Shown here: positions 1 to 2,404 of the stretch, piece after piece
Layout: each line of letters starts with the position of its first letter
How positions within the stretch are numbered: position 1 is the first letter of the stretch
Origin: Bdellovibrionota bacterium FG-2
GTDB taxonomy: Bacteria; Bdellovibrionota; UBA1018
Length of the DNA stretch: 15,303 nt
Assembly: GCA_051382305.1 (NCBI GenBank)
Contig: JBBCAV010000261.1
Span: forward strand, 1-15,303
Direction of reading: 5' to 3'
Notes under the pieces: generated by a model
Told to the model about the DNA's origin: nothing
Database searches by the model: none
Seen by the model: the letters and a program-made list of their open reading frames with translations, nothing else
Program-made: the position numbers and the translations under genes

Positions 1-390
1 GCTATGAGCGGATCGAGGATCCGAGACTTATCGGACTCATGAACGATATCTATAAAACGTGCTGGAACCCTTTACAGAACTTCTTCATGCCGTCGTTTAA
101 GCTCAAAGAAAAAATTCGTGTTGGAGCGAAGATCGTAAAAAAATACGACGCTCCGCAGACAGCTTACAATCGGCTAAAGAAAAGTTCGCACTTAACCGAA
201 GAGCAAAAAGAGAGACTCACGAGGCAGATGCTTGTCTTGAATCCTTTCAAGCTCAAGAAGGACCTCGAAGTCAAACTTAAGAATTTTTTTGAAGAGCTTA
301 GGAAATCTAAAATCCGGGAGGCATCATGATTGAGAATTATGTAAAATCAATGCCCCGCAGCTTGGTAGCACTTCTTTCTGAGTCAATACG
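1..390 (+). mobile_element. Right-hand part of an insertion sequence (ISNCY-like, integrase-core transposase); truncated by the window start
   Basis: Contains the transposase C-terminus (3..329), then about 60 nt ending GGTAGCACTTCTTTCTGAGTCAATACG, which resembles the terminal sequences of this IS group as I recall them. The left end is outside the window, so the inverted repeat and exact boundary cannot be confirmed. Confidence 0.6.
3..329 (+). CDS. Transposase / integrase-core protein, C-terminal fragment (5'-partial)
   Basis: The frame is open from position 3: YERIEDPRLIGLMNDIYKTCWNPLQNFFMPSFKLKEKIRVGAKIVKKYDAPQTAYNRL...LNPFKL. This matches the GYxR...N..Y...NFFxPxxKLxxKxRxGxKxxKxYDxPxTxYxRL...LNP C-terminal pattern of ISNCY-type transposases. 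Confidence 0.8.
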   Translation, partial: YERIEDPRLIGLMNDIYKTCWNPLQNFFMPSFKLKEKIRVGAKIVKKYDAPQTAYNRLKKSSHLTEEQKERLTRQMLVLNPFKLKKDLEVKLKNFFEELRKSKIREAS

Positions 391-2404
391 CACGAAACTG
401 GAGATGCTCTCGAATCCTATTCTCAAAAAGTCTCGTCTTTTCAAGGTCTTGCACGCCATCAAAACCAGGCGGAATTTTCGCCTCACTTCGACTCCACCGA
501 AGCAGCCACTCCCCGCCCAAAAGGGAGCCGGCCTCGCGCCCGTCTTCAATTTGAGCAAATGCAATCGTCGTTTCCGACTTGGGTCCTGTCATAACCCCTT
601 TGCCAACAAAAAAGCCGGCATAAAGCAGGGCCGCACGCACGGCCGTCGATGCCGAATAGGTAAAGAGCTTCGTGTTTCGACTCCGACAAATTTCAAACAA
701 TTTTGAAAACGCCTCGGGGGTCCAAAGCGCCGAATCAACCTTAAAGGAAAAGGGATCATAAAAAATGAGATCAGGAACTTCGGCTCCCGCCATCTCCATA
801 AAAAATTCATCCCGAAGCTCCCACTCCAGAAGCCCCGAAGCGTGTCGCCAACGCCCGGATTCCAAAAGCGCGTAAGGAGCCGCATGCCGGAGATGAGGAA
901 ACTTAACGGGATGCTTCGATGCGAGTCTCAGGGGGTCCAAATCACACTCGAAACTTACAATCTTAAGCGGACGCACGCCCGCTCGCAGCGTCTGTTCAAA
1001 ACATTTCACGGCCGCCATGGCATTTGAAGCGGCACCCAAGCCTACATCCCAAATGACCAACGGCGTGCCACTTTTCTGAATCAACGACTCCGCCAAACGA
1101 GACTGTGCGACATAAAGCCTATGAGACTCTTCAGCGGGGTCACTCACCGAATGCATGATCTCGGAAGAGCTGATTTGTCGGATGCTCGAAAAACCCTTTG
1201 CCGAGGTATGCACCTCATAATCCCCTAGTTTTGCAAAGCGCTCTGATTTCGCACGCGACTTCTTTTGATGCTCAACCGGATTGTCCTCATCCGACCGCAT
1301 CAACCCTACTTTGCGCGAATGATAATATTCCAGGAAACGATCCGCCAAAATACTCTCCCGAATTTCCCGCATCAGACGGTGATAAAAAGTGAGGTTGTGC
1401 GTCGCTAGCAACTGCCATCCCAAAATCTCTTGGGTTTTTACGAGGTGATGCAGATAGGCTCGCGAATAATTGCGACAGCAAATACAGGAGCAATCCCCAT
1501 CCAAAGGCTCTTCAGAAAATTTATAAACACTTCGCCGCAGCTGCATTTTACCATGCGTCGTAAATGCCACTCCTCGCTGCGCAAGCGCCGAGGGCAAAAT
1601 ACAATCAAACATATCCACCCCGCGATGGACGGCCTCCAAAATATCAATCGGAGTTCCAACACCCATGAGATAACGGGGCAAATCCTCCGGCAGCAAAGAG
1701 GCCGCAAAGCCCGTGAACTCATCTCGCTGCTCACGCCCTTCCCCAACCGCCAATCCGCCAATCGCAAAACCATCAAACGGTAATTTACTCAGAACATCGG
1801 CACTCTTTTGCCGAAGATCATGAAAACACGCACCCTGCACAATCCCAAAAAGAGCCTGCGGCGAATCCCCTCGCGCCTCCAGACTTCGAAGCGCCCAACG
1901 ATGAGTCAGCTCCATTGCCGCCAAAGCCTGCGCATGATCCGCCGTCGAGGGAATACACTGGTCCAGCACCATCATGATATCACTTTGAATCGCCTTTTGC
2001 GTTTCAATGCTCAGCTCTGGACTGAGCAAATAAGACTTGCCGTCGACATAACTCTTAAAATGCGCTCCGTCTTCAGTCATGAGCCTGGAATGAGGCAGCG
2101 AAAAAATCTGAAACCCGCCCGAATCGGTGAGCACGGGCCCGTCCCAATTCATAAAGCGGTGAATGCCCCCAAACCGCTTGAACACTTCAGGCCCCGGCCG
2201 TAGCAAAAGGTGATACGTATTTGCTAATAGAACACTGGACCCCGTTTCGCGCAGAGATTCCACAGTCTGCGCTTTTACCGTGGCTTGCGTCCCTACGGGC
2301 ATAAAGACCGGCGTCTGCACTTCGCCATGCAGGGTATGAAACCGGCCGGCTCGAGCAGAGGAGCCCGACGATTGAGCCTCAAGTTTAAAACGGAGACGTG
2401 ACAT
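383..2404 (-). CDS. tgt: tRNA-guanine(34) transglycosylase fused to a C-terminal MnmC/MnmD-like SAM-dependent methyltransferase
   Basis: The N-terminal ~365 aa carry the Tgt motifs [49 protein letters not shown] and the Zn site CxCxxC...H. The C-terminal ~280 aa carry EIMHS..P..E...LY, SAM motif I ([11 protein letters not shown]), SFE, IFYDPFS...LW and [17 protein letters not shown], as in MnmC-type methyltransferases. Confidence 0.93.

Follow-up and report, generated by a model that had tools for sequence, protein, structure and literature searches.

A Tgt-MnmC2-like fusion protein of Bdellovibrionota: a supernumerary Tgt paralog joined to a methyltransferase, with a putative new function

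Introduction

Bacterial tRNA-guanine transglycosylase (Tgt) places the queuosine precursor 7-aminomethyl-7-deazaguanine (preQ1) into tRNA. The insertion is irreversible, and Cys158, Val233 and the Leu231/Ala232-Glu235 peptide flip of the Zymomonas mobilis (Zm) enzyme fit bacterial Tgt to preQ1 rather than queuine (PMC3660597); the E. coli enzyme tolerates varied substrates (PMC13416341). MnmC2 (MnmD) methylates the primary amine of another wobble nucleoside. In MnmC, Glu101 holds the ribose of S-adenosylmethionine (SAM) and Asp178, invariant in all MnmC2, is the proposed base for the substrate amine; both are critical (PMC3648344). A third relevant system is found in phages, where DpdA and DpdM make N-methyl-dPreQ1 in DNA and so set a precedent for a methylated preQ1 product (PMC10516641). 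Proteins that combine the first two families have been noted in print: a TGT-MnmC2 fusion type is listed, in one sentence, in 'Alternate routes to mnm5s2U synthesis in Gram-positive bacteria' (bioRxiv 10.1101/2023.12.21.572861), and the portion of that preprint available to us reports no function, paralogy or residue analysis for it. Here one such fusion gene is described from a 15,303-nucleotide stretch of DNA (the window: contig JBBCAV010000261.1, positions 1 to 15,303 of the forward strand, assembly GCA_051382305.1) of Bdellovibrionota bacterium FG-2.

The fusion type as such is known. New here are its status as an extra paralog, its co-occurrence with QueA, QueF and, in most genomes, another MnmC2-type gene, its departure from taxonomy and its remodelled contact segments. 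Both halves are paralogs of ordinary enzymes, both keep their active sites, and their distribution is patchy and incongruent with taxonomy. Because the same genomes keep the ordinary enzymes, the fusion probably has a new, putative function. The reading ranked first, still at less than an even prospect, is a mobile accessory enzyme that would insert preQ1 and N-methylate its aminomethyl group beside the normal queuosine pathway.

Results

Architecture of the fusion gene

The gene is a single uninterrupted open reading frame (ORF) of 673 amino acids (aa) on the minus strand, with an ATG start and a TGA stop at 383-385. Its parts, in window coordinates, are as follows.

383..2404, minus strand: whole fusion gene, from the ORF listing; the N-terminus MSRLRF agrees with the consensus of 58 full-length homologues
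1289..2404, minus strand (aa 1-372): Tgt domain of a distinct 'fused' paralog clade, from Pfam, NCBIfam, sequence, AlphaFold2 fold and tree
1232..1288, minus strand (aa 373-391): charged flexible linker of 19 aa, with a predicted local distance difference test (pLDDT) score below 50 at aa 378-387
386..1231, minus strand (aa 392-673): MnmC2-like class I SAM-dependent methyltransferase of a 'fusion-type' clade, from Pfam PF05430, PDB match and Foldseek

Pfam detects TGT (PF01702) at aa 16-363 (E 1.1e-143) and Methyltransf_30 (PF05430) at aa 544-616 (E 2e-12, 47.5 bits against a cut-off of 22); the latter match is partial, covering profile positions 51-122 of 124. The Tgt half passes the NCBIfam Tgt equivalog model TIGR00430 with 452 bits (cut-off 306.75). 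The methyltransferase half reaches 65.5 bits over aa 415-615 with the MnmC2 model NF033855, below its cut-off of 136. Pfam and NCBIfam searches found no flavin adenine dinucleotide (FAD)/DAO (MnmC1) part in the protein. The description in the first-pass annotation, which was made from the sequence alone, is thereby confirmed: an ORF of this length with a complete Tgt, a charged linker, a class I methyltransferase and no FAD half. The motifs it quoted also lie at the places checked (DQC at aa 148-150, GGLAVGE at 216-222, DVGLG within 452-461, YDPFS at 549-553 and TYSAS at 582-586).

The AlphaFold2 model of the protein, built with 58 homologues, has a mean pLDDT of 92.1 yet a predicted template modelling score (pTM) of only 0.59. 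Together with the low-scoring stretch in the linker, this suggests two well-folded domains on a flexible charged linker, predicted without a confident fixed orientation.

The architecture is not due to chance. With the methyltransferase half as query, 2366 database proteins of 370-1178 aa match at E <= 1e-3, and all of the best 120 of these carry both the Tgt and the methyltransferase Pfam domains. Source labels among the matches listed include Bdellovibrionales, Oligoflexia, Opitutaceae/Verrucomicrobia, Binatia, Riflebacteria, Spirochaetes and Deltaproteobacteria, and a protein atlas contains 8 clusters of at least 50 members with this architecture. In the best 120 of the 2366 matches (90%-identity clusters) every name given by a source is Tgt or queuine tRNA-ribosyltransferase. 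The guess of the first-pass annotation that such fusions are labelled only as Tgt in databases was thus correct for these names. The fusion type itself had, however, been noted in the preprint cited above.

Some fusion genes depart from the common length. One copy (G110:C20:23107-23952) has a single in-frame TAG inside the methyltransferase match and may be a pseudogene or reflect a sequencing error. Longer open frames are found in G278 (C131:8141-8986; 1029 aa) and in G114, G117, G299, G199 and G153 (756-798 aa); in G117 the ORF as called begins some 100 codons ahead of the Tgt domain. Such longer frames could be N-terminal extensions, extra domains or merely upstream in-frame starts.

The fused Tgt is an additional paralog beside the queuosine pathway

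The fusion was surveyed in 301 genomes sampled from a single phylum, Bdellovibrionota; many of these are metagenome-assembled genomes (MAGs) and relatives among them are not independent. A genome was counted as fusion-bearing when, among the matches listed, the methyltransferase match lay in an open frame of at least 600 aa; 61 further matches rank below those listed. Fusions and Tgt matches were tallied by hand. This gave 74 fusion-bearing genomes, the window's own included.

Among the matches listed, all 74 contain at least two Tgt-family matches. Where the further copy was fetched (21 of 21 fusion-bearing genomes, including the window's genome, G000) it is a full-length standalone Tgt. Families that lack the fusion mostly have a single Tgt. 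The fusion is therefore a supernumerary paralog and not the genome's own tgt: the fused Tgt shows neither the single copy nor the tgt-yajC-secDF or queA context expected of an ortholog of the housekeeping gene.

The window's genome is a MAG of 4.34 Mb in 433 contigs (85% complete, 4.4% contamination). Its second Tgt, of 390 aa on contig C45, scores 486 bits with TIGR00430, more than the 452 bits of the fusion. This standalone tgt lies directly upstream of two genes that we take, from their sequences rather than a profile search, to be YajC-like and SecD-like. The genome also encodes QueA, QueF, QueG and MnmG. Since QueF, a standalone canonical Tgt, QueA and QueG are all encoded, the host can most likely make ordinary queuosine without the fusion, judging from its gene content.

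The same holds more widely. Of the high-quality fusion-bearing genomes, 44 were checked for QueA and QueF, and all 44 gave a match to each. In five genomes (G153, G106, G236, G169, G215) queA directly adjoins the standalone tgt, and several more have the two genes no further than about 7 kb apart; none of the 21 fusion loci compared has queA beside the fusion. The first-pass annotation had expected that genomes lacking queA would speak for methyl-preQ1, and had pictured a non-queuosine end product. Neither expectation survives. QueA accompanies the fusion in every genome checked, and with QueA, QueF, QueG and a canonical Tgt in the host, which can most likely make queuosine itself, any methyl-preQ1 would have to come from a side branch.

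The phylum often has Tgt paralogs that owe nothing to the fusion, because the paired standalone Tgts of families f21 and f18 fall in two separate standalone clades. These families have two full-length standalone Tgts (G128, G009, G190 and G034, loci L040-L048; G005, L072 and L073), with 480-535 bits against Pfam TGT. In addition, nine genomes of the window's family f1 (G073, G245, G248, G251, G272, G281, G290, G299, G230) have three Tgt-family matches, that is, a third copy beside the fusion and the canonical gene.

Other MnmC2-type genes in the same genomes

In most cases the METHYLTRANSFERASE half is likewise an additional copy: at least one further PF05430 gene is present in 40 of the 44 genomes with the fusion. 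A match of the bifunctional MnmC type (104-130 bits, in a frame of 628-777 aa) is present in 10 of the 44, and two of these were verified. The MnmC of G049 scores 198 bits for MnmC2 and 231.5 bits for MnmC1, both over the cut-offs; that of G230 scores 206 bits for MnmC2 and 169.7 bits for MnmC1, just under the cut-off of 174.2. In genus g72 of family f21, canonical standalone MnmC2 occurs in 5 of 6 genomes, the protein of G190 falling just under the cut-off of 136 with 129.5 bits. G273, a relative without the fusion, has a canonical standalone MnmC2 at 142.5 bits. In total, canonical MnmC or MnmC2 was counted in at least 15 of the 40 genomes with a further MnmC2-type gene. Canonical MnmC2 proteins of the same phylum score 130-206 bits against the NF033855 cut-off of 136.

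Three MnmC2-like proteins are encoded in the window's genome, namely the fused domain and two standalone proteins. The two latter belong to groups SA-A and SA-B, which are also found in other f1 genomes and in further sampled genomes.

L003:1000-1860 (G000 contig C199), plus strand: standalone MnmC2-like paralog of 286 aa, below the NCBIfam cut-off
L005:1069-1995 (G000 contig C89), plus strand: standalone MnmC2-like paralog of 308 aa, below the NCBIfam cut-off

Active site and RNA-contact residues of the Tgt half

The fused Tgt matches the Z. mobilis Tgt sequence at E 1e-114. In the AlphaFold2 domain most 10-residue blocks have a pLDDT of 86-98 and one block is at 80. In Foldseek the model matches the Tgt structures of Z. 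mobilis and T. maritima at template modelling (TM) scores, normalised to the target, of 0.94-0.97 and root-mean-square deviations of 1.3-1.9 Å. Residues were compared between 128 fusion sequences and 30 standalone Tgts, with Zm numbering taken from the alignment. The main sites are listed here.

2123..2125, minus strand: Asp94 (Zm Asp102), catalytic acid/base, by alignment; 100% in 128 fusions
1955..1963, minus strand: Asp148-Gln-Cys150 (Zm Asp156/Cys158), base recognition, by alignment; the Cys is the bacterial preQ1-type determinant (PMC3660597)
1739..1759, minus strand: GGLAVGE (Zm Gly229-Glu235), preQ1 pocket with the Leu231/Ala232 flip, Val233 and Glu235; each position 100% in 128 fusions
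1604..1606, minus strand: Asp267 (Zm Asp280), covalent nucleophile, by alignment; role from PMC3660597
1559..1594, minus strand: remodelled helix segment of 12 aa, in which the window's protein has Ala273 for Zm Arg286, Gln276 for Arg289 and Arg for Asn290
1475..1492, minus strand: CSCICC zinc cysteines C305/C307/C310 (Zm Cys318/320/323); 100% in fusions
1397-1399, minus strand: fourth zinc ligand His336 (Zm His349); 100% in fusions

Thus D102, D156, C158, G229-E235, M260, D280 and the zinc Cys3His set are present in 100% of the 128 fusions and Q203 in 99%. By TIGR00430 score, catalytic Asp pair and zinc site, preQ1 pocket and fold, the fused domain is a bacterial Tgt. It lacks the conserved basic RNA-contact residues of that family, Zm Arg286 and Arg289. 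Position 286 is Q in 85% and A in 10% of fusions, vs R/K in 100% of the 30 standalone Tgts; position 289 is Q in 88%, vs R in 100%; position 290 is R in 91%, vs N in 83%; and position 332 is H in 97%, vs R/K. Lys264 is replaced by T (99% in fusions), and four further positions are fixed in fusions: 336 (K, 98%), 343 (W, 96%), 48 (Q) and 54 (Q).

In the 2003 Z. mobilis RNA complex Arg286 and Arg289 reportedly touch the backbone of the anticodon loop. A literature search for RNA contacts of Zm Arg286, Arg289 and Lys264 yielded a location for Arg286 alone, which is placed at the ribose-34/phosphate-35 pocket (PMC5395182). Zm 336 corresponds to E. coli R320 by an offset of 16 (E. coli Asp264 is Zm Asp280), and R320 is a tRNA-stem contact needed for activity (PMC13416341).

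Fold, catalytic residues and acceptor loop of the methyltransferase half

Modelled alone, the methyltransferase domain reaches a pLDDT of 93.8 and a pTM of 0.91. Foldseek ranks 1-9 are all MnmC2 or MnmC (3VYW, 2QY6, 3PS9, 3AWI, 3SGL, 3PVC; E 4e-14 to 9e-11), with domain-length-normalised TM scores of 0.55-0.71 and 18-22% identity in the structural alignments. They are followed by m4,2C synthase and then spermidine synthases. The best PDB sequence match is also 3VYW (E 3.6e-6).

1022..1051, minus strand (aa 452-461): glycine-rich SAM-binding loop (motif I), matched in the alignment by Gly66-Gly70 of E. coli MnmC
947..955, minus strand: SFE, with Glu486 corresponding to E. coli MnmC Glu101 (SAM-ribose anchor); invariant in 58 fusions and aligned with the 'SFE' of Aquifex MnmC2
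722..760, minus strand: catalytic Asp550 (E. coli MnmC Asp178) and a derived methyl-acceptor loop of 13 aa; the Asp is invariant in 58 fusions, from alignments

Within motif I, W452, D453, G455, G457 and N461 are invariant in the 58 fusions. With the Tgt residues at 99-100% in 128 sequences and Glu486 and Asp550 invariant in 58, both halves look catalytically competent.

The acceptor loop differs between groups. Canonical MnmC2 has D-[AG]-F-[AS]-P-x-x-N-P-x-[LM]-W (consensus of the canonical group D-A-F-S-P-x-x-N-P-x-L-W), and the Pro182 of this loop is more than 98% conserved among bifunctional MnmC (PMC3648344 Table 2). In the fused clade and the standalone relatives nested within it the loop is D-[PM]-F-S-x-K-T-[DS]-x-x-L-W, in which the Pro and the Asn-Pro are lost; the consensus of the fusions themselves is D-P-F-S-x-K-T-D-x-x-L-W, which is not the canonical loop. 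The standalone group SA-B keeps the canonical S-P..N-P..W pattern (YDPYSPxGNPEMW) and SA-A has a weaker form of it. The fused domain thus has the fold and the Glu/Asp pair of MnmC2, scores under the NF033855 cut-off and carries a different acceptor loop.

Phylogeny and probable mobility

All trees were quick searches with Shimodaira-Hasegawa approximate likelihood ratio test (SH-aLRT) support only. Fused Tgt domains are 60-92% identical to that of the window, and standalone Tgts 44-49%. In a quick IQ-TREE tree of 65 rows, 35 fused and 30 standalone Tgts were split by one branch of length 0.87 (SH-aLRT 100), and fusions labelled as other phyla nested among those of Bdellovibrionota on short branches. 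A tree built from 22 complete fusion proteins placed those of family f21 inside family f3 (SH-aLRT 97-99). For the window's own family, f1, monophyly within the fusions was rejected by the approximately unbiased (AU) test (p 0.003); families in this test are taxonomy labels, and an earlier tree had been seen before the test was run. The presence of the fusion is also patchy within families. Because the tree is incongruent with taxonomy and the presence so uneven, the gene behaves as an accessory one that moves horizontally, or as an old paralog with many losses.

In a tree of 80 methyltransferase domains all 39 fused domains and 17 standalone proteins formed one clade (SH-aLRT 99). The canonical MnmC2s of f21 were far off, on branches of 3.35 and 1.86. 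SA-B formed a supported clade and SA-A a clade of SH-aLRT 92 plus five unresolved basal rows, with one of the window genome's standalone paralogs in each. The nested standalone fusion-type methyltransferases are genuine and not fragments, with P0172-type genes on long contigs. In G190 one such gene (C1:1235965-1236798, L085) is found about 5 kb downstream of the fusion (C1:1229002-1230969, L027); being close by and grouping in the tree as sister to the methyltransferase domain of that fusion, it looks like a recent domain duplication. The Tgt half also occurs alone: family f7 has standalone fusion-type Tgts (G122:C36:32020-33102 and G132:C43:16694-17782; L106, L107) in frames of 409-421 aa that are 59-62% identical to the window's Tgt domain. 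G132 has in addition a fusion-type methyltransferase on another contig.

Neighbourhood of the fusion

Twenty-one fusion loci, each with roughly 9 kb on either side (less for the window and L039), were compared by all-against-all BLAST. The fusion is in a tgt-yajC-secD or queA context in none of them; in the window's genome it is the standalone copy that has the tgt-yajC-secD context. Rfam detected only three tRNA genes in the fusion loci (Arg-CCG, Asn-GUU, Ser-GGA), without pattern. The neighbours of the standalone relatives (PIG-L, DUF2911, PQQ propeller, MacB) are uninformative.

In the window, an ORF of 774 aa at 2442-4766 on the minus strand, which matches no Pfam family, ends 37 bp upstream of the fusion start codon and may be co-transcribed with it. 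Elsewhere in the 21 loci it adjoins the fusion only in the same-genus genome G263. On the plus strand, dprA (DNA_processg_A) at 11002-11925 is followed by topA (Toprim, Topoisom_bac and three zinc ribbons) at 12021-14333. The rest of the window encodes a START-domain protein, a DUF3943 protein, a metallo-beta-lactamase-fold protein, an HDOD/HD protein and a DUF4360 protein. None of these, dprA and topA included, is related to tRNA modification.

Discussion

Proposed activity

We infer the substrate, the product and the coupling between the halves; the coupled scheme is proposed as the simplest account, because two supernumerary paralogs with intact chemistry and altered contact segments are found fused and mobile, one of a kind that installs a base with an aminomethyl group and one from a family that methylates such a group on a wobble base. 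The Tgt-paralog domain would swap guanine for preQ1, as its intact catalytic, zinc and preQ1-pocket residues suggest, most likely at position G34 in an anticodon loop with U-G-U. Its RNA preference or its grip on RNA may be altered by the changed contact residues. PreQ1 should be available, since QueF was found in each of the 44 fusion-bearing genomes checked, and the window's genome encodes it too. The tethered MnmC2-like domain, using the same Glu/Asp SAM chemistry, would then N-methylate the installed primary aminomethyl group, a step suggested by the chemistry, the fusion and the paralogy. The product would be 7-(methylaminomethyl)-7-deazaguanosine, and the nucleotide would be diverted from QueA; the reverse order, with free preQ1 methylated before insertion, would give the same product. 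It is tentatively possible that the fusion makes an undescribed natural RNA nucleoside, N-methyl-preQ1 at G34 or at another U-G-U site selected by the remodelled RNA-binding surface, in a horizontally spreading accessory branch that competes with QueA for RNA carrying preQ1. The idea in the first-pass annotation that the methyltransferase acts on preQ1 is accordingly still viable and ranks first, but with its product beside queuosine and not in its place.

If insertion followed by methylation proves right, the 7-deazaguanine (queuosine) pathway would have a second end product in bacterial RNA, a new tRNA nucleoside, made by a compact, self-contained enzyme. A Tgt with altered RNA contacts tethered to a methyltransferase could also serve site-specific RNA labelling of the RNA-TAG type (PMC13416341). 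The fusions matter for annotation as well: they would pass as housekeeping tgt in pathway reconstructions, though they are an additional paralog in 74 of 74 genomes.

Several observations weigh against methylation of inserted preQ1. The AlphaFold model (pTM 0.59) gives no fixed interdomain arrangement, so channelling between the sites is unsupported. In four of the 44 genomes (G205, G091, G120, G267) the search for PF05430 genes gave nothing but the fused domain, and neither these four nor the window's genome yielded MnmM (PF06962); in the four, the fused domain may be the cell's only methylase of 5-aminomethyluridine (nm5U). The suggestion to look for another mnmC, mnmD or mnmM therefore had a divided outcome, with another MnmC2-type gene in 40 of 44 genomes and neither this nor MnmM in the remaining four. 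The window's three MnmC2-like proteins score 61-80 bits and none reaches the NF033855 cut-off. With no substrate-bound MnmC2 structure available, the change in the acceptor loop is not readable as fitting preQ1, and the role assigned to Zm R286 and R289 is partly putative. No conserved neighbourhood was found beyond the same genus among the 21 loci, and a search with Rfam gave no riboswitch, of the preQ1 type or any other, in the window and 20 fusion loci, so neither links the gene to 7-deazaguanine metabolism. A literature search found no report on the function of the fusion or on methylated preQ1 in any RNA; methylated preQ1 appeared only as mdPreQ1, in the phage-DNA paper (PMC10516641).

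The two halves are moreover separable. No Tgt was found near the P0172-type standalone methyltransferases within the flanks examined, which on L114 and L118 extend the whole ±6 kb. In G122 a standalone fusion-type Tgt occurs but a fusion-type methyltransferase match was not detected, and G145 has a standalone fusion-type methyltransferase with a single Tgt. Fission, duplication and loss occur, and since both halves exist as standalone genes the covalent link is dispensable. The first-pass annotation had named separate genes in close relatives as grounds for giving up its proposal; this applies in part, as such genes do exist (the f7 Tgts and the standalone methyltransferases), but they are not taken to refute it.

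Alternative explanations

The main rival is that the chain holds two independent conventional wobble activities, insertion of preQ1 into tRNA-Asp, -Asn, -His and -Tyr and methylation of 5-aminomethyl-(2-thio)uridine, nm5(s2)U34, to the 5-methylaminomethyl form, mnm5(s2)U34. The fusion would then give only co-expression or extra tRNA affinity, like the independent sites of bifunctional MnmC, and would be an ordinary domain fusion of modest interest. All family catalytic residues are kept in both domains, and by sequence as well as structure the C-terminal half is nearest to MnmC2 enzymes of validated function. The four genomes with no other PF05430 gene or MnmM found fit this explanation, as does the window's genome, which has MnmG but no MnmC1 or MnmC2 above the NCBIfam cut-off. 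So do the standalone fusion-type methyltransferases without an adjacent Tgt and the modelled lack of a fixed interdomain geometry, and MnmC itself is a precedent for uncoupled sites, about 45 Å apart (PMC3648344). It is nevertheless rather doubtful. Both halves would be redundant in most genomes (a further Tgt in 74 of 74; another MnmC2-type gene in 40 of 44, canonical in at least 15), the fusion is more conserved across families than standalone Tgts, and unchanged substrates would hardly account for RNA-contact residues and an acceptor loop that are remodelled throughout the clade. Canonical Tgt and MnmC2 also serve different tRNA sets, so there would be no obvious gain from fusing them. Independent activities had been put forward at first as the simpler alternative; the paralog redundancy argues against this, and the explanation is kept as the foremost rival.

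The novelty could also lie in the target and not in the product. The protein might act on another tRNA, another U-G-U site, rRNA or mRNA, or its methyltransferase on another amine, giving a modification that is neither queuosine 34 nor mnm5U34 and not necessarily methyl-preQ1 at G34. The replacement of R/K at Zm 286/289 by Gln or Ala and the newly conserved R290, K336, W343, Q48 and Q54 are consistent with such a change, the more so as Zm 336 is the equivalent of the activity-relevant stem contact R320 of E. coli (PMC13416341). Non-tRNA targets are feasible for an enzyme that needs only a short hairpin (PMC13416341), and in these cells G34 of the GUN tRNAs is already served by a housekeeping Tgt. 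A new target is unlikely all the same: neither the base pocket nor the general fold of Tgt has changed, few residues differ, and there is no candidate target and no conserved neighbouring RNA or gene in the loci compared. Finally, the Tgt part might be a silent, RNA-binding module that delivers the methyltransferase to anticodon loops, as in eukaryotic TGT, which has a non-catalytic paralog subunit, QTRT2. QTRT2 is among the PDB matches (E about 1e-26) and the fusion is always accompanied by a catalytic Tgt. Yet Asp280, Asp102, Asp156, the preQ1 pocket and the zinc site at 99-100% in 128 sequences are unexpected in a silent domain, and this one scores as a Tgt equivalog, which makes the explanation highly improbable.

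Comparison with known systems

The catalogued TGT-MnmC2 fusions resemble the protein described here in having PF01702/COG0343 and the MnmC2 part of COG4121 in one polypeptide (bioRxiv 10.1101/2023.12.21.572861). To bacterial Tgt of Z. mobilis and E. coli (EC 2.4.2.29) the fused Tgt is 45-48% identical, with the same fold. It keeps the nucleophile, acid/base, pocket and zinc site as well as the dimer-interface residues Tyr330, His333 and Glu339, and differs in its paralog clade, in the substitutions at Zm 264/286/289/290/332/336/343 and in its C-terminal methyltransferase.

MnmC2/MnmD, represented by 3VYW of Aquifex aeolicus and the N-terminal domain of E. coli MnmC (2QY6/3PS9), appears by the predicted model to share the class I fold and to be the nearest structural neighbour. 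The SAM-ribose Glu and the Asp proposed to activate the amine are kept, and the N- and C-terminal extensions of the Aquifex type are common to the fused domain, which is partnered with Tgt instead of the MnmC1 oxidase and is far from the canonical MnmC2 of its phylum in the tree. In bifunctional MnmC (MnmC2-MnmC1), MnmC2 is fused to the maker of its aminomethyl substrate, which is the design logic proposed here; its partner is an FAD oxidase that acts on 5-carboxymethylaminomethyluridine (cmnm5U), and the two widely spaced sites are kinetically independent (PMC3648344). This enzyme co-exists with the Tgt fusion in G049 and G230, where it was verified, and a match of its type is present in 10 of 44 genomes.

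DpdA and DpdM are the only known natural route to N-methylated preQ1, by a Tgt-family transglycosylase followed by a methyltransferase (PMC10516641). The phage nucleoside cited in the first-pass annotation is borne out by this source, but as support it amounts to analogy. The pair acts on DNA as two separate proteins, and DpdM is unrelated to class I methyltransferases, having a DUF3109/YkgJ-like metal-binding fold with a CxxxCxxCC motif (PMC10516641). Homology to DpdM was rejected: the fused domain is a class I methyltransferase with no DUF3109 match in Pfam. No DpdA model was among the NCBIfam matches of the fused Tgt at E up to 0.01, and it scores as a bacterial tRNA Tgt. An N-methyl-preQ1 enzyme of the kind proposed would be, by analogy, the RNA counterpart of phage DpdA/DpdM, built from unrelated methyltransferase parts.

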